This document shows positions 28,794 through 52,326 of a DNA stretch of 52,326 nt, piece by piece. The notes beneath the pieces are model-generated. The model worked only from the letters and a program-made list of their open reading frames with translations, was not told the origin of the DNA and made no database searches. The translations under genes were made by a program, and so were the position numbers. Origin of the DNA: a virus (Duplodnaviria > Caudoviricetes); the IMG/VR virus record IMGVR_UViG_3300012211_000001, positions 1 through 52,326 of that record. The stretch is one strand, 5' to 3'. Position 1 is the first letter of the stretch, and each line of letters starts with the position of its first letter.

Positions 28794-31259
28794 ATGAGCG
28801 GGAGAATCCGCTATCGCATCGACATCTTTGGGGCCGGTGTCCAGACGACAACGGGCGCAATCGATTTCACTCTCCAGACCTCGCAACTCCGCGCCCCACC
28901 AATCCTCGGTGGCCAATTGGTCCGTGCGCCGGAAGGGCGCGTCGAGTCCCAACCTTGGAAACTCTCAGTCTTGGATATCAATTCAACGTTCACCGCCCAC
29001 CTGACGAACAGCTCGGGACGGTTACAACTCCTGGGTCGGTTGACGCGGTTCCGCTCGTCCCTGGATTCGACGGCTAGTTACTCAACCATGTCGGTGGGGC
29101 GGCTGACGGATATCAACCTCGCCGCGGATGTCGCGGGGTGGGACCTCACGATTTCCGATGAGCGCTATCTCGAACGCCAAACCCAAATCTTTGGGCAAGC
29201 AAATACAGCGAGCCTCATTCCACGTGGCGTCATTAATACGTTCCAGCAGATCGCTCCCTTAACGAACTATACCGCACGGTATACCTGGAGGCTCGGTGCC
29301 AAGTCGGGCAACCTGGTTCAACTGATCTATCCCGCGGTATATCTGCGACCCCAGATATCCGGCCATCCCACACTCGGGCTTACGTCCTCCATCCCACAGC
29401 TAATGATGGATGATGTGAAGGTGGATTGCGTCTCTCCCTTCACGACGATGACCGTCGGGAACTTCAAGACCTTGCGGTTTCACAACATCACCAATGGGAC
29501 GGATTATGAGGTGGCGGGGTTTGGCACGCTCGGGCCTGGCACGTTCATCGATCCGACAATCATTGGGTATCTGCAGCGCTTCAACGAGACCAATCCCACG
29601 AACCTCGCGCTAATTGTGGTCTGGCCCACCAGCCAACCGAGCGGCGATGTGACGGGATATCTCTATGCCCCGACGCATTTACCTGACACGACACTGCCAC
29701 AGCATATCGGCGGCTCGACGGGCTTGCACCCGGGGACGGTCGCGCGGAATTGCTACAACGGGGTCTATAACGTCCCTACGGTGCCGAGTTCCACCTCGCT
29801 GAAATTGCGCATCTCGACGGCGGCATTTGATAAGTGGGAACGTGATCCCCACTATGGGCGCGTCTGGTTCCGCATCACTGCGCCGATGACGATGGCGGAT
29901 TTTCTCGAACAGCGGATCTTCGGACCCTATAGCGTCATTCCCCTGATCGACAGCCAGGGACGTATTGCGCCCATGCCCATGCGGCTGCCTAGCACCAACG
30001 ATCCCGTGCCGGCGACCATCCCGACGATCAGTGCGACTAATGCGCGGACGCATCCGACGTGGGAACATCCATCCCGGGAAGCCATCACGGCAGTGCGGTT
30101 GCGCTATGAGTCCTATGGCATGCAACTCGACCGCGACGGCAATCCGCAAATCTCCCCAGCAGCCGATGGCCTAATGGTGCTGACGAAGGAAACCACAAGG
30201 ACGAACGATAACATCACACGCTTGGGCAGGAATGAACGGACGTATCAATTCGGGTCGATTTCCGCTGGACGCACGCCAGTCCCGTTCTTTGCCTTTACGC
30301 CAGGTCGGGAACCGCCGCCGTTGCAGTACGCCGAGACCATGAGCTCTATGCTTGCCCGGCAAATCTTCCCCGTCTATGGGGATGGGCCGCTCTATGTCAG
30401 TGTGGAATGTCAGCGCACCATCGACCAGACGACCCATGGCACGGTGAATCCCGGTGAGTATGTGGCCCTGAACCTGGGGACCTGGCCCAGCCCACAAACG
30501 AATACGCGTGGTGGGAAGGCCTTACTGCGTATTTTGCAGCGGGGTGAGAAGCCGGAAGGTCCCGTGTTTCGGGGACTCTATCTCGGGCCGTCCACCCTGG
30601 GTGCGATTGGCACGCCAGGGATCATCCTGCGGCCTACAACGAATTCCTCGCGGCATACAGTGATTCTGACCGTCTCCAGTGTGCCGGCAGGATCACGGTG
30701 GCTTGCTCAGATTGCCATGACGACCTCGACGGGGGCGAGCGCACCAGCCTCCAGCTCGCCAGCTTGGCAGCCCGCGGGCACGAACACGACCGCCACACTG
30801 ACGCAGACGCTCGGGATGCGGCCGGCGGGGCGCAAACACTTCGTGCGTGTCCGAGCCATCAAAGCGACGCGCATCCTCTCGCCCTGGAGTGCAAGTACCT
30901 TTGCCGTTACCGCCGCGTTACCCGCACCCACGAACTTCGCCACCACAGTGGCCTCAGCGGGGATCGGGACGATCAAGTTCACTTACGGATCAAGTATCTA
31001 TCATACCGAGGTGATGATTGATACTAGTACGGCAGCGACGCTGACTAGTACGAATCGGGTGGATGTGGTTCCTCCAGCCACCACGCGCTATACGTTCTTT
31101 GGTTTATCCACCAATGCCAAGGCGAAGGCTGGTGTGCGGCATCGGGATCCGTGGGGTGGCGTCTCAGCGACCTTGGCAGGAACGATTAGTACGACGGGAA
31201 AGAATTCGACGACTTTGGCAAATCTTCGAGGTATTCAAATCTTGAAGGCGAAACTGTAA
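28794..31259 (+). CDS. Tail tip/hub protein with FN3-like C-terminus
   Basis: 821 aa after TMP; Thr/Ser-rich; HFVRVRA..SPWS. Confidence 0.7.
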   Translation: MSGRIRYRIDIFGAGVQTTTGAIDFTLQTSQLRAPPILGGQLVRAPEGRVESQPWKLSVLDINSTFTAHLTNSSGRLQLLGRLTRFRSSLDSTASYSTMSVGRLTDINLAADVAGWDLTISDERYLERQTQIFGQANTASLIPRGVINTFQQIAPLTNYTARYTWRLGAKSGNLVQLIYPAVYLRPQISGHPTLGLTSSIPQLMMDDVKVDCVSPFTTMTVGNFKTLRFHNITNGTDYEVAGFGTLGPGTFIDPTIIGYLQRFNETNPTNLALIVVWPTSQPSGDVTGYLYAPTHLPDTTLPQHIGGSTGLHPGTVARNCYNGVYNVPTVPSSTSLKLRISTAAFDKWERDPHYGRVWFRITAPMTMADFLEQRIFGPYSVIPLIDSQGRIAPMPMRLPSTNDPVPATIPTISATNARTHPTWEHPSREAITAVRLRYESYGMQLDRDGNPQISPAADGLMVLTKETTRTNDNITRLGRNERTYQFGSISAGRTPVPFFAFTPGREPPPLQYAETMSSMLARQIFPVYGDGPLYVSVECQRTIDQTTHGTVNPGEYVALNLGTWPSPQTNTRGGKALLRILQRGEKPEGPVFRGLYLGPSTLGAIGTPGIILRPTTNSSRHTVILTVSSVPAGSRWLAQIAMTTSTGASAPASSSPAWQPAGTNTTATLTQTLGMRPAGRKHFVRVRAIKATRILSPWSASTFAVTAALPAPTNFATTVASAGIGTIKFTYGSSIYHTEVMIDTSTAATLTSTNRVDVVPPATTRYTFFGLSTNAKAKAGVRHRDPWGGVSATLAGTISTTGKNSTTLANLRGIQILKAKL

Positions 31260-35472: not shown

Positions 35473-36002
35473 CCGTCATTCTGCTGTGCCTCACGTTCCT
35501 GCTGAGTAACTGGGCGAGTTATCGCGCCGGACGGAGAGACGAATCGCGCACCCAGTTGGGATACCTTCTTGCTGCGGCGCCGGCGCTTGAGCAACTCCAA
35601 GCGGCGACTCGGAGCGCTGATTCGTTGTCGATGCGGTTTCTGCTCCAGATGGGACGGCTCCGCAGACACCGCTAATCGGCCCACCGTCATGGAAAATGCA
35701 TAACTCAAAACGTGACTCAGGTCGCTGGCAATACACCTTGCGATGAAACGTGCAGTTGAGTACGTGCCAAATCCCCCCCAACGCGACATCTTGGGTGAAC
35801 TCCATATCAACAATGAGACCATCGCCGAGTGTATCGAGCCGAGTCATTATTGGTTCTCTCTTTCGAAAGTGTCCCGTACATTGAAAATCGCCCGCGCGGC
35901 GCTGAGTCGGGGAAATGTAGGTAGGTACTCAGAGCTAGCCGGTTTACCCGCCGGCCCGGACATCCTCGGGTGACCGGTCTCGTCCGAGAATAGCCCTTTT
36001 CC

Positions 36003-36084
36003 CTACCCACACTCAACCTTGCCAGACCCGACCACACCACGCCGTGCCACACCGGACCATACCCAAGCCCCGCCTTACCTGACC
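36003..36084 (-). repeat. GGY-NN pentamer array B (~14-16 units), putative guide ncRNA
   Basis: Minus strand: GGTCA GGTAA GGCGG GGCTT(G) GGTAT GGTCC GGTGT GGCAC GGCGT GGTGT GGTCG GGTCT GGCAA GGTTG. Confidence 0.8.
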
Positions 36085-36205
36085 ACGCGAGAAATTTGCA
36101 CTAACATGAAGCCCTTCGCGACTTCGGGGTGCGCATCCACTCGGCGCGCGGTGATCTCGCGATCTGACGGTCATTCCGAAACAGCGTCCCCGCGAGCGCG
36201 TTCAT
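36075..36205 (-). pseudogene. RusA-like resolvase C-terminal remnant, frameshifted
   Basis: NALAGTLFRNDRQI then, in another frame, REITARRVD...MLVQISRV*. Confidence 0.5.
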
Positions 36206-37155
36206 TCCCAGTTCGGTAGGGTGCCCCATGTCTTGGCCAACTTCTTATATTCGGTTGCCCCGACGAGGGTAATGGGAATGTGGGGATAGTAGCGGGCCAT
36301 GCGCGCCAGTTTGGTCTTAGACTTCGGGTCCATCCAGCCCTTTACCTCCACATAGAAGCTTGTATCGTCGGGGCGGTCTACTCGGAAATCTGGAGTATAG
36401 GAACGGCATCCCCGTTTGATGTTCTTGAACCAAAAGGTGATGGGTTCATAGGCCCAGCGCTTGATGGCTCCCGACGACAACAGGAAGTTGAGAAACCGCG
36501 CATAGTTCGCTTCCCATCGCGAGCGGAAGAACCTGTTCTCCAGATCGACCCTGCGTCCTACCTTGCTTCGACCGTTATACCATCTTCCTCCACGCCTAAG
36601 TCGCTGGCTGGCAGCTAGCGCCAGTTTCGTTCGTGTCTCTGGTGTAAAGGGATTGTGGCAACGGTGGTCAGAGGCTGCTCGTAACTTGGCGCGAGTCTCA
36701 GCGGAATGCGTATGTCCAGTATAGGTGCAACCCTGCGCAGCCGGATGACCCCGTTGCCGAGCGCGTAAAGAAGCTGCGTCCTTGGTAGCCTGTCGCTGAG
36801 GCCACTTCTTATCCAAGGGCCATTCCAAACCCAATTGATGAGCTACTCTTGAGATGCTTGTGACAGGACAGCCCAATTCTACTGCTAGTCGTTTTCGGTC
36901 AGGGGCGACAGGGCCAGCATACTCGCGGCGGATACGAGCCAGGGCCGCATCACTCCAAACTCGCTTAGGACTGGCTCTGAGACAACCGCAGGATTTGGTA
37001 GCGCCTTTCCTGATTTCGCCCCCGTCTATCCACTTCTCGGTTCCACAATCGCAGCGGCAGAACCAAGAGAGGTGGCCGCTATTTCCTAGCCGAGAGTTAG
37101 CGGTCACGGTGAGGCGACCCCAGCGTGTCCCAGCCATCGGTTTTCGCGTATTCAC
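36202..37155 (-). CDS. PD-(D/E)XK endonuclease with homing-endonuclease-type DNA-binding modules
   Basis: [17 protein letters not shown]; NUMOD3-like HSAETRAKL; RSRWEA..YEP..YTPDF..VEVKG. Confidence 0.8.
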   Translation of the reverse strand: MNTRKPMAGTRWGRLTVTANSRLGNSGHLSWFCRCDCGTEKWIDGGEIRKGATKSCGCLRASPKRVWSDAALARIRREYAGPVAPDRKRLAVELGCPVTSISRVAHQLGLEWPLDKKWPQRQATKDAASLRARQRGHPAAQGCTYTGHTHSAETRAKLRAASDHRCHNPFTPETRTKLALAASQRLRRGGRWYNGRSKVGRRVDLENRFFRSRWEANYARFLNFLLSSGAIKRWAYEPITFWFKNIKRGCRSYTPDFRVDRPDDTSFYVEVKGWMDPKSKTKLARMARYYPHIPITLVGATEYKKLAKTWGTLPNWE

Positions 37156-40436: not shown

Positions 40437-41597
40437 CTAACCCCATGGTTCTCTACGGGTTTGTGGATCACGGTCCCAGTCCGCTTCTGTCGGCACGCTC
40501 GACCTAGCTTCAGCCCACGTTGAGCCGACAAGCGCCATCCCGGCGCCTAAGATGTTACGAGCTGCGTTGTGGTCACGGTCCAATTCGGCACCGCAGGGGC
40601 AAGAATGCCACCGCTGGGCGAGCGTCTTTTTCACGACCTGACCACATGCGCTGCACTGTTGCGACGTACCGGCGGGACTTACCGCAATCAGTGTCCGAGC
40701 AGCGCTTTCAGCCTTCTCGGCCAGCAATCGCAGGAACTGCCCCCACCCGGCATCATGCACGGACTTCGCCAGCATTCCACCAGCGAGACCCTTTACGTTC
40801 AGGTCCTCGACGGCAATCAGATCAAAGCGGTTGACCAGCGACCGGGAAACCTTGTGGTGAAAATCCCTGCGTTGTTGCTGGACGTGCTCATAGATCCGAT
40901 GAAGGGAAAGTACAGCCTTCTTCCGCCCATGGCTTCCCATGTGTCGGCGTGCGACGCGACGTTGCGCTAGGCGAAGTCTCGCCTGACCGCTCGCGAAGTA
41001 TCGAGGGTTGGAAACCGCCTCCCCAGTGGAAAGCATGGCGAATGACGTGAGCCCTACATCTACGCCAATCGCAGCCCCGCTTCTGGGTAGCGCTTCAGTA
41101 TTTACTTCGTTAGCGAAGCAGACGAACCAGCGGCCAGCATTGCGCTTGACAGTCACCGTCTTGACCTTGCCTTCCAATGGTCGATGCAACTTTAACTTGA
41201 TCTGTCCCACACCGAACAAAGCAACCCGACCAGCGATGATCCAGTGAGTCTTTCCTGAAAACGTAAGGGAATCATAGCGTCGTGCTGAGCGGAAGCGTGG
41301 ATAGCCGGGAGCTTGACCAGCCTTCACCCGTCGGAAGAAGGCCCGGAAGGCTCGGTCCACGCGCCGCAGTACGTCCTTGGCCACCCTCTGGCTTGGGATG
41401 GCCAAATCCCCTGATGCACGAATCTCCTTGAGCTGTGCGGCCTGTTCGTATAACCCGATGCTCTTCCGCTGCATCCGCCACGCCTCGCGTCGTTCTTCAA
41501 GGGCCGCGTTGTAGAGTCTTGCCGCCTCGGACAATTGCAATTCAAGCGCCATTACTTGGGCAATGGTCGGATAGAGTCGGTACTTAAAGGTTTTCAT
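40437..41597 (-). CDS. tnpB: TnpB RNA-guided endonuclease (IS200/IS605 family)
   Basis: KTFKYRLYP; RuvC GVDVG / AVEDL / DRDHNAARNI; zinc finger CSAC..CPC. Confidence 0.95.
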   Translation of the reverse strand: MKTFKYRLYPTIAQVMALELQLSEAARLYNAALEERREAWRMQRKSIGLYEQAAQLKEIRASGDLAIPSQRVAKDVLRRVDRAFRAFFRRVKAGQAPGYPRFRSARRYDSLTFSGKTHWIIAGRVALFGVGQIKLKLHRPLEGKVKTVTVKRNAGRWFVCFANEVNTEALPRSGAAIGVDVGLTSFAMLSTGEAVSNPRYFASGQARLRLAQRRVARRHMGSHGRKKAVLSLHRIYEHVQQQRRDFHHKVSRSLVNRFDLIAVEDLNVKGLAGGMLAKSVHDAGWGQFLRLLAEKAESAARTLIAVSPAGTSQQCSACGQVVKKTLAQRWHSCPCGAELDRDHNAARNILGAGMALVGSTWAEARSSVPTEADWDRDPQTRREPWG

Positions 41598-41779
41598 TAC
41601 GGGTTTCCCACGGGAGGAGGCAGCAACCCAAGCCGACGAGCGCAACCGATATGATAATGCTCGTAAACTATCGGGTCGCTTTCCTTGACGTTGGGGGGCG
41701 GGGGCGCGATTCGCGATAACGCTTCGTCCCCCGTCCACAGCGCCCCCCCGCAAGCTTGGCATGTGGCCTCAATTTTCAT
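41597..41779 (-). CDS. Small zinc-finger-like protein
   Basis: CQAC...HIGC; TAATG coupling to tnpB. Confidence 0.55.
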   Translation of the reverse strand: MKIEATCQACGGALWTGDEALSRIAPPPPNVKESDPIVYEHYHIGCARRLGLLPPPVGNP

Positions 41780-42565: not shown

Positions 42566-42970
42566 TCAGGAACCCCCCGAGAGAGCCACGTAAATGCGCA
42601 TCCCGAGACGCTTCTCAGCGGTGCGCGCGATTCGCGCTGGCAGCAGCGGGGCCCATTTCGGATGCCCTTCGAGCTCGCGCAACCGGGGGCGCACCGTCGA
42701 AGGATTGATCCCCGTGCCATTGGCGATTTCGCCCGCGGTCATGCCTCGCGCCCCGGCGACAGCGATGTAGAGGTAAATCGCTTCCCGCACGCGAGCGGTG
42801 TGCGGCTTGATGCGCGCCGCCGCTTCACGCGAAGTGTCAACGGCCACGCTGGGGGGTGAGTTATCGGGCTCTGTGCCGACAGTGGTATTTCCACCCCCCA
42901 GGGGCCAAAACAAGTCGGGGTCGGGCTCTCCTGGGAGCGGGGCCGCCCAGTGCTTATGATGGGCGCGCAT
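42566..42970 (-). CDS. Winged-HTH protein
   Basis: DTSREAA...GMTAGEIA....PSTVRPRLREL. Confidence 0.75.
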   Translation of the reverse strand: MRAHHKHWAAPLPGEPDPDLFWPLGGGNTTVGTEPDNSPPSVAVDTSREAAARIKPHTARVREAIYLYIAVAGARGMTAGEIANGTGINPSTVRPRLRELEGHPKWAPLLPARIARTAEKRLGMRIYVALSGGS

Positions 42971-42972
42971 TC

Positions 42973-43545
42973 CTAGCCCGCGACCTCTTCCCAGAGCGTG
43001 ACTCGGAACGTCCCGAACGGGCCACGCTTCTCGGGGCGAAAATCTCCAATGCCGATGCCTACACCGGCTTCTGTCAGGAGCTGGTGCGCTGTCTCGACTT
43101 CGAGCAAATCGTCATTGACGAGAAGTTCGAAGCGGGCGCCCCAGTTGTCGAACCGGGGGCGATGGCGCATGACGCGGCCCTTGGTGGCGGGGATCGTGAC
43201 GGGTCGGGAATCGACCTCGAAGGATTTTGCAGGGCCGTCGCCGTTGAGGATCGTAATAGCATCCGTTGGGACGCGCACCGCTGAGGGAACCACGAAGCGC
43301 AAGCTCTTGCGGCTACCACGCATCTTGTGGTTCGAGCCAGCGTTCCCCATCGCTCCGGCGATACTGAAAGCGTTGAAGTAATACGTCCCGTCGGGCGCGA
43401 TATAGGCGTTGGCGGTTGCCTCAGCCCTCGGATCGGCGGTCTTGACCATCTGCTTGCGGGTTGCTTTTGCCTGTTCAGCTTGCTCTGCGAATCGGTGAAT
43501 CAGCAATGGCGTCACGCCACGAATCTCAACCTTGATCGTTTTCAG
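42973..43545 (-). CDS. Cas7/RAMP-like protein, probable CTG start
   Basis: KTIKVEIRGVTPLLIH first strand; C-terminal G-rich loop AGVGIGIGDFRPEKRGPFGTFRV. Confidence 0.75.
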   Translation of the reverse strand: MKTIKVEIRGVTPLLIHRFAEQAEQAKATRKQMVKTADPRAEATANAYIAPDGTYYFNAFSIAGAMGNAGSNHKMRGSRKSLRFVVPSAVRVPTDAITILNGDGPAKSFEVDSRPVTIPATKGRVMRHRPRFDNWGARFELLVNDDLLEVETAHQLLTEAGVGIGIGDFRPEKRGPFGTFRVTLWEEVAG

Positions 43546-43566
43546 AAAACCCCCTTAGAGAGAACT

Positions 43567-43646
43567 TCACCATGCCTTACCGCACCTTGCCCCACCCCGC
43601 ATTGCCAGACCACACCAGGCCCCACCTAGCCCAACCGAACCGCACC
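43567..43646 (-). repeat. GGY-NN pentamer array A (16 units), putative guide ncRNA
   Basis: GGTGC GGTTC GGTTG GGCTA GGTGG GGCCT GGTGT GGTCT GGCAA tGCGG GGTGG GGCAA GGTGC GGTAA GGCAT GGTGA. Confidence 0.88.
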
Positions 43647-43898
43647 TTACAAACCTTCTCTTTCAAAAAGCACTGCATCGATCGCGTCGAGTAACGGTTT
43701 GAAATATACGCCCCGGCCGTTTTTCAACTCGACTTCATTTCGCATTCTGACGAGCGCATTCGAGCTAAATTCTTGGAGTGGTGTGCCGGCGCGTTCTCCG
43801 AAGGGCCACAGAATCGTTCCAGCCGAATCGTCCGGCTCATCCCATGGCATCGGATCGGTACGCCGAAAGACTTCGGGATACTCGTCAAGGCGTTCCAC
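43647..43898 (-). CDS. Hypothetical protein
   Basis: WPFGERAGTPL motif; follows ERF. Confidence 0.55.
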   Translation of the reverse strand: MERLDEYPEVFRRTDPMPWDEPDDSAGTILWPFGERAGTPLQEFSSNALVRMRNEVELKNGRGVYFKPLLDAIDAVLFEREGL

Positions 43899-44592
43899 TG
43901 GCCACCTTCGCGGCTCGCGCCTTGAGTTCGAGCTTCACAATCGCCAACCACTCATCGGGAACGGGTGCTTGCCCCGACTCGACTGCGCGGAGCTGATTGA
44001 GTGCCCATTCGCGGACGCACTTGCCTTGTACGGTTCCGCCGCCCGTCCATTTCGTATCTCTAGTAGGAAACTCATCGGGTTCGGTAATCCGCTGGGGAGA
44101 CGTGGGGCCCGACTCCGCGCTGGGCGGACTCGCTGCGCTACCCTTGGAAGGCGCAGTGGACTTAGCCCCACGCTCCACTCGCTTCGCTCCGCTTGCCGCA
44201 TTGCCGTCGTCATCCTCAGTTACCACGCCCACGACTGCCGCGAGCGCATAGCGCCGCAGATAGGTCAGCGCAGAACCCACGCCTTGGGCATCCGACTGTT
44301 TCAACGGCGCGCCCGCCGTTCCCGCAATCCATTCCCCGGACTCGTGGACGAGGACGGTCGTCAGCGTGGCGAACGGTGGGTCGCCCACCGAGTACCCGGG
44401 AAACTGCGTTACCGTAAGGCCGTTCGATTGCAACGCAGCGCGGCAGGCGTTCCAAATGGATTCGAGCCCCGCGTAACTGGACTTGAAGAACGGGTTCGTG
44501 GAATCCTTCACCGCTGGTTGCAATGCGGCCTGCGCTTTCAGCAGCGCTTTGGCGAGCCCCGCGACGCTCGAACTCTGGGTGACGCTGGTCAT
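43885..44592 (-). CDS. erf: ERF family single-strand annealing recombinase
   Basis: KDSTNPFFKSSYA, LVHESGEW, QGVGSALTYLRRYAL, EDDDGN. Confidence 0.93.
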   Translation of the reverse strand: MTSVTQSSSVAGLAKALLKAQAALQPAVKDSTNPFFKSSYAGLESIWNACRAALQSNGLTVTQFPGYSVGDPPFATLTTVLVHESGEWIAGTAGAPLKQSDAQGVGSALTYLRRYALAAVVGVVTEDDDGNAASGAKRVERGAKSTAPSKGSAASPPSAESGPTSPQRITEPDEFPTRDTKWTGGGTVQGKCVREWALNQLRAVESGQAPVPDEWLAIVKLELKARAAKVASGTP

Positions 44593-45290: not shown

Positions 45291-45518
45291 TCATGCGACC
45301 GCTCGAACGCCGAGCATGGTTAACACGGCGCGGGCTTTGGTGCCTTCCCACGACCGGTGCCCCAGCTCGAGATCGGAGAGAAATGAAGCGCTGACCCGCA
45401 CGGCGCGGGCGACTTCTCTGAGGCCCAATCCCTTGTTAACACGCTCGGTGCGAACTCGCATCCCTAGGGCGCGCCAGTCGGGTTCCTTGCCAGTTCCGTG
45501 ACAGCGTTTACATTCCAT
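45291..45518 (-). CDS. XRE-family HTH regulator (Cro/CI-like), probably leaderless
   Basis: GLGLREVARAVRVSASFLSDLELG. Confidence 0.85.
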   Translation of the reverse strand: MECKRCHGTGKEPDWRALGMRVRTERVNKGLGLREVARAVRVSASFLSDLELGHRSWEGTKARAVLTMLGVRAVA

Positions 45519-45524
45519 AAGAAC

Positions 45525-45570
45525 ACTATACGCTTAGGGGGTTGACACGTCAAGGGGGATAGGCTAACGT
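45525..45570. promoter_or_regulatory. Divergent sigma70-type promoter pair
   Basis: Rightward TTGACA-17-TAACGT; leftward TTGACG-17-TATAGT. Confidence 0.85.
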
Positions 45571-46182: not shown

Positions 46183-48365
46183 GTCGCTATTCTGATTTGC
46201 CGTCCGGATGCTCGCCGTCCGACATTCCTGGAAACCGCCCCGAGGATTTGGTCTCCGAAGAACTATACGAGTTGTTCAGCAAGGCATGGAGCTATGCCTT
46301 CACCGAAGAACAGATTGTGGAGATTTGGCGCGAAGCGGTGAAGGAAGAAGAAGCCAAGGCGGACGATTACGAGCGGCGGCGGGAGGGAGCGTGAGCGAAA
46401 AGAGGTATCCCGAGGTGATTACGCCTGAGATTCTCGCAGAGTTGGCGCATGTGAGCGATGACGAGATCGCCCAAGACATTGCGGATACCGAGCGCGAAAT
46501 CTCCCAGTATCGTGCAGTAGGGGAAGCGGAGGCGGGGATTGCTCGCGCGCACCCCGATCAGAACGAGCGGCGCATGGCTGATTTTCGCGCCCGCGCACGG
46601 CCTGAGCAAATCGCCCAGCGGGAAGCATTCGTGGCATATCTGCGACGGTTGCAAGTGGCGCGAAGCCAAGGAGTATAGGCATGAGTTCGGGGACTTCTTT
46701 GCATAGTCAAGACCGAGAGCAGCACAGTCAGCAACCCCCATTGGCCGACATTCGGAATGCGCTGCAAGCACTCGTCGCGTGGCGTGAGGAAAGCCTCCGG
46801 GCCGACTTGGAAGATGTCGAGCGCCTACTGAATCACGCGATTGAAGGCCTCTCGGAGCCGAATGCGGCGGCCATCCATGCTGCTACCGCCCTGCTGCGCG
46901 CCGCGATGGGTCCGACGGCATTTGATCTCGCCGAGCCCCGGTTGCCCCGCGATGTGGCGTCGGTGATTCTTCACGCCCAGTTGACGGGCCTTTCCCCGGA
47001 GACGCTGTGAGCGCCTCGAATCTGCCAACGGGTCCCTCACGGTCATTGCCGAAATTGACGCTCGAACAGCGTACTCGCGCCTATAAACTGGAGCACCAAG
47101 TCGTGGACGATTCGCTGGGGGCCGCTTATGAGATTATCGCACTGCGCGATGCCGCTCAAGCGATGGCCGATTTCGCTTTTTCGCATGTGGAGCAGACACG
47201 GGGCTATCGCGCGGCGATTCGTGCCTTCTGTAAGCACAAGCGCGCATTACGGGAAGCACTGAGTGGTTCTGGAGAGGTTCTATGATGAGCGCCTTGCGCG
47301 AAGAACTGACGATTGAACATGTGCGCCTTCTGCTGTCAATCGCAGTGACGACATATAACGAGAAGCCCGAAGGTGAGCGGCGCCAGTATCTCAAAGTGGT
47401 TGCGGGTAGTCTCGTGCGAACTATGATTGATCGTCTGGCGCGCCCTGACGTTCCTGACACGACGCATTGGTATCTGCCGCACATCTGGAATACCGAAGGA
47501 ATTTGCACCAAGTGTGGGCGAGATCTCCATCTCACTGATGATCCAGCTTGTTCCGACTCGCTCCAAGAAGCGATCAGTAAATGTCGGCAACTCGGGCATC
47601 TGTGGAGTGAGTCACACTTTCCCTACGAAGGCCAATGTTTACGCTGCGGCGAATGGGACTTACCGGAAACTGAGGGTGCTGATCCCAACGAAGGAGAGCC
47701 CCGGCCATGGCAATAGCCACCTGTGCGCATGGTGTCTCGCTGATGCGGTTCTGCGATGCGTGCGAGGAATCGAATATCCGCGCCGAGCAGCATTTCCGTG
47801 AGCAACGGCAGGTCGCCGCGGATCGCCGCATCGTGGAGTACCATCAAGCGATGTACGGTCCCAGCTCGGAGGATGCGTATTTGGCGGAACCCGAGGACCT
47901 ATGCCGGGGCTGCGGCACGCCTTGGATCAGTCATATGCGGACCGATGCGGATAATTACTGCGGCGAGTGCCGTAACCCGGAGGACCGATGATTGGCCATT
48001 TTTTGCTGACGCTGATCGCAGAGCAGGAAGATCGGGTGCTTACTGAAAGTTTTGAACCGTATGTTCCCGAACCGTATGTTCCCGATTTGACAACTCGGCG
48101 CTGTGTGATCGACGTAGCGCTCGACCGTTCGGCGAATACTACCGAAGCCGTATATTTCCCATTCCGGCCTGGTGCCCCGTGGGCGCAATGCGGCCTCGCA
48201 TGGGTCGGTAGATCATACGATCGGCTTTGTATGCGTTTTGGGTCGCCCCGCGTGAACGCCGCCATCCGGAATCGCATCCTCTCGAATCGCGCCCGCCGTA
48301 TTCTGGGTAACCCGTCTCGGGATACTGCTGGTGTCGGGGAGTGCCGATTCGGACGGGGCGAATGA
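46179..48365 (+). other. Run of coupled small early ORFs (46179-46394, 46391-46678, 46681-47010, 47007-47285, 47282-47716, 47707-47991, 47988-48365)
   Basis: Continuous same-strand tiling, mostly with start/stop overlaps. Confidence 0.6.
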
Positions 48366-51028: not shown

Positions 51029-52252
51029 ACTGGCTGCGCGAAATCTGGAAATTGCGCCCTCCGGTGAGTCCGCTCTGGATGTATCGCTGGCTGCGCGATT
51101 GGGATTCGCGCCCCAGCCGCTGGAGGGCGATTCGGCATACGCTGCCTTGCTGGTGGGCGCTCTGGCAGTGGGCCGCGAGTCCTGCGGGATATGATGGTGA
51201 TTACACGGATGTAACATTTGGGGCGGCGCCGTCCCCGGACCCCAAGGAGCCCAGGCCATGACGAATATCTGGTATTTCCGTGAAGGGACCGAGCAGCGCG
51301 TGGAAGTGCTGCACATGGATGCCGCTGACGGTGACCCACAGCGCTGGATCGTGAATTGTGGAGCGTGCGGGACCAACTTCACGCTGCGCCCCGACCACGG
51401 AGTGCAGATCGGCCCTGACGGCGCGCTAACTGCGGAGCACTCTTTTAACTGCCCGAAATGCATGAATTGGCATCGCCACGTTCGCGGCGGAGTGATACAG
51501 CCATGACAGGTCCTGTGGGGGCTTCGCTTCCGGGAGCCGCGCCATCAAGCGAGGGCCCAAGCGAGCAAGGCTGGTTTGACGTGCAATTAACGCGCGCCGA
51601 GTATGAAGCTGGGGCTGAGGCGCTTTTACGGATGGGGTTGGCGGTTGGCTGGCTTCCAACGCATGTCGAAGCTGCTGCGGCGTTCGTATGGCGCACCATT
51701 CAGACAGTCCGCGGGGCGGCGCTGGAGGCTGGGCCTCCCCTCGGGCACGAGAAGCTCGACGAAATCGTTGCCCGTTTCGGCGCAGCGAGTCACAAGGCGG
51801 GTCAGGAGTCTGTACGGCATACTGGGTATGAGCCTCGCGCCGAGGAATTGCTACGGGAAGCGACGGCCGAGGTACAAAAAGCATTACGAGTTCTGGTGAG
51901 TGGGGAGGCTGGGCCTTCCCCAGAACGTTGCCCAACTTGTAGGTCGGTAGCCCATGCCATCTGCGATACCTGCGGCGAAGAGTGGTTCAATCGCACGCAG
52001 AGCATCGCGCATTCACAACAAACCGCCGAACGGTTAGCAGCGGGGCCCTGGTACGTGGACGATTCGATCACGGGTCCCGAGCCTTGGTATGTCGGCAACG
52101 GAAAGCGGGGCTATCATTTCCTCAGCGAACTGGAGGCGCGCACCGTATGCGATGCGCTAAATCGCGCCCACGTCTCGGGTAACGCTGTAGATTTTGGTGT
52201 TCGGGGGCCGCCTCAGGAGAAGCCTAGCGCAACCCCGCCGGATTCCCTATGA
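51025..52252 (+). other. Terminal small ORFs (51025-51261, 51258-51506 zinc ribbon, 51503-52252)
   Basis: ATGA-coupled tiling. Confidence 0.55.
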
Positions 52253-52326
52253 TGTTGCTATAGACGGCGCTTCGTAGCGTCGCCCCGCTGATCCCTCGTC
52301 TCACCGGGTCGCCCCCTCAGTGGGCA
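52204..52326. repeat. Terminal direct repeat (copy 2)
   Basis: Identical to 1-123. Confidence 0.95.

Follow-up and report, generated by a model that had tools for sequence, protein, structure and literature searches.

A very probable VIPR system with a CTG-start vipr gene and a distant second array in a 52-kb soil phage genome

Introduction

Can a run of pentamers, each led by GGY and closed by a variable dinucleotide (NN), form an RNA-guided system outside CRISPR together with the small RAMP-like gene that follows it? The question is raised by a locus on the minus strand of a 52,326-nt stretch of phage DNA (the window), for which an earlier reading of the letters alone (the original prediction) had proposed such a system. 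We find that the locus is very probably a VIPR system, carried by a soil phage whose 52-kb genome is probably complete. As a member of that known family, it is a new example and not a new kind.

VIPR (Viral Interference Programmable Repeat) was first described in two bioRxiv preprints, both from 2026 and cited here from the portions that were available (10.64898/2026.04.26.720920, 10.64898/2026.04.26.720927). These portions present RNA-guided DNA silencing by Vipr, a minimal RAMP protein carried by phages, in which competing phages are silenced transcriptionally and the target is DNA rather than RNA. The guide (vrRNA) comprises 9–16 YNNGG repeats and an invariable, structured 3' tail; one protomer occupies each repeat and sequesters GGY, and the NN pairs read double-stranded DNA with every third base skipped (10.64898/2026.04.26.720920, 10.64898/2026.04.26.720927). 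Seven types are distinguished, with or without vap genes, the typical locus being a two-gene vipr–vap arrangement, and stand-alone genes are also mentioned (10.64898/2026.04.26.720920, 10.64898/2026.04.26.720927). The characterised examples are the type II system of Escherichia phage SUSP1 and that of a Pseudomonas fulva prophage (10.64898/2026.04.26.720920, 10.64898/2026.04.26.720927; PDB 36pp). In the cryo-EM preprint, SUSP1 Vipr holds G1, G2 and Y3 through H17, R138, D177, W178 and R179, and the available text reports no self-target for the published systems (10.64898/2026.04.26.720920 / 10.64898/2026.04.26.720927). The upstream vrRNA of SUSP1 is itself among those shown to act as a guide, and polymerisation of Cas7-type subunits along guide RNA at a fixed period is described as well, being also established knowledge (10.64898/2026.04.26.720920, 10.64898/2026.04.26.720927).

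Results

Two GGY-NN arrays in the window

The locus and its immediate neighbours, in the direction of reading, are as follows.

43647..43898, minus strand: 83-aa ORF, last gene before the array in a leftward operon; its TAA abuts array 1
43567..43646, minus strand: vrRNA 1 repeat tract (array 1), 16 head-to-tail pentamers, 15 of 16 with GGY
43546..43566, minus strand: tail from repeat tract to start codon, 21 nt, with a small predicted hairpin and then TTTT
42973..43545, minus strand: vipr gene, 190 codons plus TAG, with CTG at the start position (43545-43543)
42566..42970, minus strand: gene for a 134-aa winged-helix / HTH protein, its ATG 2 nt past the vipr stop

Read from 43646 downward, units 1–8 of array 1 are GGTGC GGTTC GGTTG GGCTA GGTGG GGCCT GGTGT GGTCT, and units 9–16, down to 43567, are GGCAA TGCGG GGTGG GGCAA GGTGC GGTAA GGCAT GGTGA. 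The tenth unit reads TGC in place of GGY. The resulting NN string is GC TC TG TA GG CT GT CT AA GG GG AA GC AA AT GA, and both this list and the originally predicted count of 16 units, 15 of them with GGY, were reproduced exactly on the minus strand. The array had been placed right behind an upstream stop codon and about 20 nt ahead of a gene of about 190 aa. Its first unit does directly abut the TAA (43649-43647) of the 83-aa ORF, and 21 nt lie between its last unit and the vipr codon that aligns with Met1 of the homologues.

A pentamer run of this kind could in principle be a chance low-complexity tract. We scanned the whole 52-kb window on both strands for GGY at period 5 over at least 5 units, and found three runs: array 1, a second minus-strand array, and one run at 29513-29542(+) with five of six GGY units, which is at chance level. 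As a control, we ran 200 first-order Markov simulations of the window, allowing one miss and using both strands; the longest GGY run was 3 units in 44 simulations, 4 in 128, 5 in 26 and 6 in 2. Both minus-strand arrays lie far beyond chance, because 15 and 10 GGY units are observed against a simulated maximum of 6.

36014..36084, minus strand: array 2, candidate vrRNA 2, with 10 + 4 GGY-NN units, intergenic, 7 kb from vipr

The main block of array 2 (36014-36063) has GGY in all ten units, with the NN string AT CC GT AC GT GT CG CT AA TG. Ahead of it come four further units (36065-36084), out of register by one base, and then a single G. Array 2 is flanked by an HNH / resolvase-like gene (36202-37155) and an ORF at 35491-35847; it could serve as an orphan guide or else form a 'staggered' pair. 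Rfam gave no match at E ≤ 1 around array 2, and the array with its flank folds no better than its shuffles. For array 1, 197 of 200 shuffles fold at least as well as the sequence itself (z +1.68), which is the expectation for a guide that is kept single-stranded.

The vipr product resembles SUSP1 Vipr

Pfam and PADLOC searches returned no match for the Vipr protein of the window, and the PHROGs match is a family of unknown function (phrog_4652, E 2.8e-23). A profile of 83 diverse sequences (A2) identified the 'SUSP1 Vipr protein' in the PDB (36pp_D, E 1.6e-22), with the next match at E 0.29; profile positions 1–180 align with residues 1–188 of 36pp_D, which is full length. A second profile (A1) reached 36pp_D at E 1.3e-10, and the window protein by itself did so at E 4.8e-5 over residues 120–184. 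The suggested likeness to VIPR-type systems is borne out by this homology, together with the contact residues and the array linkage described below.

The original prediction had noted a RAMP-like first strand and a C-terminal glycine-rich loop; these are KTIKVEIRG and GVGIGIGDFRPEKRGPFG, respectively. The AlphaFold2 model (pLDDT 93.8, pTM 0.87) has strands at 2–10, 55–58, 110–118, 123–132, 136–143 and 180–187, with the G-loop at 161–178, and we read the hairpin at 110–132 as a putative thumb. The model thus predicts a minimal RAMP fold, with a single RRM core, a thumb and a glycine-rich loop, and no second RRM. A Foldseek comparison of the kind that the original prediction suggested, against Cas7/Csm3, gave 108 PDB matches at E ≤ 1e-3, the best being 6ifl_F (E 4e-7, TM 0.56). 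The best 28 of these 108 are all chains of about 190–235 residues from type III-A Csm or type VII CRISPR complexes, which we take to be the Csm3/Cas7 backbone subunits. This assignment is consistent with the Cas7 query named in the available VIPR preprint text, 6IFN chain E. The prediction would have failed on a protein lacking an RRM/RAMP fold; we find both the RAMP fold and homology to the solved SUSP1 Vipr.

The GGY-contacting residues can be followed in the alignment. R129, D168, F169 and R170 of the window Vipr align with R138, D177, W178 and R179 of SUSP1 Vipr, and H17 aligns with H17, giving four identical positions and one conservative aromatic-for-aromatic replacement (W to F) among the five. 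No reliable counterpart could be placed in the window Vipr alignments for E71, M72, C173, T175 and K33 of SUSP1. The residues that are invariant across the family are kept, and the reading frame is intact.

The alternative of a Class 1 CRISPR-Cas remnant draws on the Cas7-like fold and on a Cas12f-like (TnpB) gene 1.2 kb from vipr.

40437..41762, minus strand: TnpB / IS605 OrfB gene, matching Pfam OrfB_IS605 and the Cas12f1-like TNB domain; PADLOC Cas12f at E 1.4e-60

This gene is not part of the VIPR locus and has no accompanying CRISPR array; it gives the phage a putative second, unrelated system guided by RNA. The claimed absence of CRISPR repeats and cas genes held for the repeats, with no CRISPR-like repeat family found in the window, and for cas1, cas2 and the other cas models run against the 70 ORFs; the exception is the TnpB ORF, which does match Cas12f models. 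Rfam at gathering score gave no family across the whole window, in which no tRNA was found either. The best sequence match of the protein is Vipr and not a Cas protein, simulated runs stop at six units, and arrays accompany the gene in nearly all related loci (below). The repeat, cas-model, simulation, linkage and homology results together refute both a CRISPR-Cas remnant and a chance tract, and we regard either as barely conceivable.

Arrays accompany the gene across the family

Of 1571 candidates from a word-indexed search for the Vipr family, 1350 proteins passed E ≤ 1e-3, and an exhaustive search gave 2885 cluster representatives at 50% identity. We examined 88 related loci, 8 from genome contigs and 80 from viral contigs, whose relatives are 37–86% identical. 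The cellular relatives come only from metagenome-assembled genomes, titled Chthoniobacterales, Opitutaceae, Phycisphaerae, uncultured bacterium and Woesearchaeota archaeon.

Homologues lacking GGY-NN arrays would have spoken against the original prediction. Arrays of at least six GGY units lie within 1 kb of the gene in 86 of the 88 loci, and on the same strand in 85, although the 88 are not independent cases because many are near-copies of one another. The three loci without a same-strand array comprise two whose available sequence ends at the gene (L006 and L050) and one with its array on the other strand (L052). Near the gene (165 kb in total), there are 292 same-strand arrays against 2 on the opposite strand; farther away (599 kb), there are 7 against 1. 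The array of L052 (5798-5912, 19 of 23 units) makes it the only relative in which the array runs opposite to the gene.

We counted 206 distinct arrays with 3364 units among these loci. Base use is A.34, C.15, G.30 and T.21 at unit position 4, and A.29, C.19, G.25 and T.26 at position 5, and the NN positions are therefore near-evenly mixed and hypervariable across the distinct arrays; GGY at positions 1–3 in this tally is partly forced by the scan rule. The array ends within 60 nt of the start codon in 47 of the 83 loci whose match starts at residue 1, and many relatives have arrays solely downstream of the gene or kilobases away.

Some arrays in the family are long. Uninterrupted arrays in L018 (3458-3947, 86 of 98 units) and L009 (609-858, 46 of 50 units) exceed the 9–16 repeats per vrRNA given in the available preprint text, and L082 (1831-12144) has many arrays spread over 10 kb.

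The tail and a possible leader role

Within the 21-nt tail of array 1, a hairpin is predicted at 43562-43550 (CTCTC-TAA-GGGGG, 5 bp including G-U pairs), followed by a U-run. It appears in both the MFE and the centroid folds and is also a terminator-like match. Its 3' arm contains AAGGGGG (43556-43550), which is likely the vipr ribosome-binding site, and any function of the tail is putative. The tails of the relatives differ from one another in sequence. In a sub-clade (L020, L025, L028 and L033), a spacer of about 20 nt (CTCTGGCGAGAAATTTTTAT or TTAGGGGGCAAAGAATTTTT) recurs between the downstream arrays, behind a terminal GGTTT unit. This spacer looks like a short conserved tail of the hairpin plus U-run type.

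TRAP acts on (G/U)AG repeats, and by analogy the array could be confined to a cis-acting role as the vipr mRNA leader, where bound protein would adjust translation and no guide would be involved. Array 1 is indeed the 5' leader of vipr, the predicted hairpin includes the ribosome-binding site and extends to the start codon, and a similar closeness of array and start codon occurs in the 47 of 83 relatives noted above. A leader-only function is, however, at odds with the many relatives whose arrays lie downstream only or kilobases away, with array 2 of the window at 7 kb, and with NN positions that are hypervariable rather than conserved. The upstream vrRNA of SUSP1, moreover, itself acts as a guide according to the available preprint text (10.64898/2026.04.26.720920, 10.64898/2026.04.26.720927), and leader and guide roles can coexist. 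We consider a leader without a guide very improbable.

Guide and message may nevertheless be one molecule in this clade. The ribosome-binding site would be hidden in the hairpin and the CTG start deliberately weak, with growth of the Vipr filament or processing of the tail setting translation. We offer this as a speculative idea with a small chance of being right. If true, such an autoregulatory loop would keep protein and guide proportionate with no accessory gene, and it would also serve guides scattered elsewhere in the genome.

The CTG start codon

The vipr start position is occupied by CTG, the codon that stands opposite Met1 of homologues beginning MKTI in the alignment. The frame opens just three codons before it, behind a TAA, and AAGGGGG is placed 4 nt 5' of it. 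Start positions in 83 relatives are ATG (60), GTG (16), TTG (6) and GTC (1), and CTG is found only in the window among the 84 sequences compared. The region is identical in contigs from three public soil runs of at least two studies. Contigs of two runs cover all of the segment compared, and these runs possibly gave rise to the DNA studied here; the third, from another study, contributes a 155-nt contig. All matching contigs are of DNA, and no RNA run containing this sequence was found listed.

Because the start position is CTG, vipr expression may be weak or lost. The locus could on this ground be a decaying or silenced VIPR copy in which Vipr is no longer translated and the array survives as a relic. 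Initiation at the next canonical start (GTG, codon 11) would cost the RRM its first strand; one array unit has lost its GGY; and no target was found (below). Set against this, CTG is accepted, if rarely used, as a start in NCBI table 11, the family often relies on weak starts (GTG or TTG in 22 of 83 relatives), and the AAGGGGG upstream is strong. The frame and the family-invariant residues are retained, 15 of the 16 units are intact, and the sequence is unchanged across the three soil runs, with the proviso on their source given above. A decayed copy seems improbable to us, and we retain the reading of the locus as a VIPR system.

Search for targets

The original prediction expected the NN string, read with gaps as NN.NN.NN, to match rival phages or host genes. 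This gapped reading is the same as the one-base-skip rule (NN-x) in the available preprint text, which we applied by analogy to both strands with a threshold of at least 80% NN match. No self-target was found in the window by this rule, the best matches being 20/32 for vrRNA 1 and 14/20 for vrRNA 2. Skip lengths of 0, 2 and 3 did no better in the window, except that the arrays match themselves at skip 3. The 88 related loci (813 kb) likewise held no target, with best values of 20/32 and 15/20.

In viral contigs, exact sub-patterns of vrRNA 1 units 1–10, 7–16 and 4–14 (unit 10 open) gave 0 matches each, as did that of all ten vrRNA 2 units. Half-guides gave 1 match for units 1–8 and 69 for units 9–16, none of which extended beyond 25/32 at full length, the chance level among 70 loci. 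In metagenome contigs, units 4–14 (unit 10 open) matched 4 records with 2 distinct sequences, at 23/32 and 22/32, in which 3 and 2 of the 12 free bases fit, again as by chance. The best values of 25/32 and 23/32 equal chance expectation because 16 or 20 bases were forced beforehand. In one of the metagenome matches, an open frame covers the site and the skipped base falls on the wobble position. Neither the 4 metagenome-assembled genomes with relatives nor 401 genomes from the order to which one of these belongs gave a match at ≤ 3 mismatches. As for the published systems, no self-target was found, and no target at or above 80% emerged from searches of this form, in which a target at 80–90% NN match could be missed because they needed long exact stretches or ≤ 3 mismatches.

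The phage genome and neighbouring genes

With an exact 123-nt direct terminal repeat (1-123 = 52204-52326), the contig probably represents an entire phage genome of 52,203 bp, either circularly permuted or terminally redundant. It encodes a terminase, portal, major head protein, endolysin, Erf and DNA methyltransferase, and its host is probably a non-model organism.

The 83-aa ORF upstream of array 1 has no family match and no homologue in any of the 88 loci; Erf (43885-44592) belongs to the same leftward operon. On the other side of vipr, the 134-aa protein matches Pfam HTH_20 (E 1.9e-6) and HTH_IclR (E 2.3e-4) as well as phrog_1123 (E 2.1e-10). Its homologues are absent from all 88 related loci, and for this reason we treat it as a candidate for a vap-like accessory by position and fold class only. 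Apart from Erf, which occurs in 6 of the 88, the neighbouring genes of the window have no homologue in these loci. No conserved neighbour cluster was found across the family, and hence no conserved vap, because no neighbouring gene is common to the relatives. The largest neighbour clusters among the relatives were rejected as ORF artefacts that read through arrays.

45525..45553, minus strand: promoter-like site, TTGACG-17-TATAGT, matching 10 of 12 consensus positions, preceding an XRE-type HTH gene (45291-45518)

This site could possibly be the start of the leftward transcript that carries vrRNA 1 and vipr, and the XRE-type HTH gene that it precedes, also on the minus strand, matches HTH_31 (E 2.6e-6). 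Promoter-like sites were called by consensus match only, with 4 found against 2.7 expected in shuffles. At 45487-45553, such sites stand back-to-back on both strands, between the XRE-type HTH gene and a plus-strand operon from 45619, in what looks like a lysis-lysogeny or early switch region. Elsewhere, at 48054-48085, there is a perfect 15-nt tandem repeat in 2.1 copies, GAACCGTATGTTCCC, which is partly palindromic and may be an operator or origin element.

Discussion

A working model for the locus

The array, its non-randomness, the fold, the Vipr homology, the contact-residue alignment and the family-wide linkage of gene and array are shown here. Since the locus agrees with VIPR at every sequence-level point testable here, both the match and the mechanism are supported. 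The points against are the target not found, the CTG start, the unit without GGY, the lack of an accessory gene common to the relatives and a hairpin tail unlike the pseudoknot tail of the SUSP1 clade. For the window locus itself, we infer by homology with the SUSP1 system that the array is transcribed and processed, that the RNP assembles, and that it binds and silences DNA.

On this basis, the leftward early operon would be transcribed through the array to give a vrRNA of 16 GGY-NN units and a short 3' tail. Vipr protomers, each a single-RRM RAMP protein with thumb and glycine-rich loop, would polymerise on it, one per unit. Each GGY would be flipped out and held by H17, R129, D168, F169 and R170, leaving the 16 NN dinucleotides displayed as a gapped guide. 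The guide would pair with double-stranded DNA of either strand in the order NN-x-NN-x, one base being skipped per unit, and the bound filament would stop transcription of a competing mobile element. Array 2, 7 kb away, would supply a second guide.

One subunit per GGY with NN as a gapped guide is what the original prediction had proposed, and this agrees with the mechanism in the available text of the two 2026 preprints. The further proposal of nuclease-free targeting of DNA or RNA of rival phages would, by the same analogy, stand for DNA and not for RNA.

Comparison with known systems

The locus adds a probably complete soil phage to a VIPR family that is large in metagenomes (2885 clusters at 50% identity), and it leaves the known mechanism unchanged. 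Its natural design is compact, with guide, 21-nt tail and 190-codon gene in 674 bases and no conserved partner gene. As one more natural variant, combining a CTG start with a short tail and a candidate distant second guide, the locus is of practical value for the engineering and classification of VIPR systems.

The window shares with SUSP1 VIPR one small RAMP protein (about 190 aa), homologous over its full length by way of the family profile, and five GGY-contact positions that are identical or, once, aromatic-for-aromatic. As in the systems described in the available preprint text, a 16-unit GGY-NN vrRNA, inside the published range of 9–16, immediately precedes vipr on its strand, and the system is phage-borne, without a CRISPR array and with no self-target found in the window. 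It differs in that the protein alone aligns with SUSP1 Vipr over its C-terminal third, the full length needing the family profile, and in that vipr starts with CTG. The 21-nt tail has a small predicted hairpin that overlaps the ribosome-binding site, whereas the SUSP1 clade is described there with a pseudoknot tail. The window also has no accessory gene common to the relatives, its array 2 lies at 7 kb, and its phage is known from a soil metagenome.

With Cas7/Csm3 of type III-A Csm and type VII complexes, the window Vipr shares an RRM core, a thumb hairpin and a glycine-rich loop (TM 0.5–0.6), and its subunits would likewise polymerise along guide RNA at a fixed period. Identity is 12–17%, and the period is 5 for Vipr and 6 for Cas7/Csm3. 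As far as the preprint text goes, VIPR flips out three guide bases and one on the target; it lacks a crRNA repeat handle, adaptation genes and any Cas5, Cas6, Cas10 or Cas11 partner. Unlike in Class 1 CRISPR, the VIPR guide is encoded in the genome and not acquired. TnpB with its omega-RNA is similar in being a compact RNA-guided system on a mobile element, and differs as an unrelated RuvC-fold nuclease that uses a contiguous guide.
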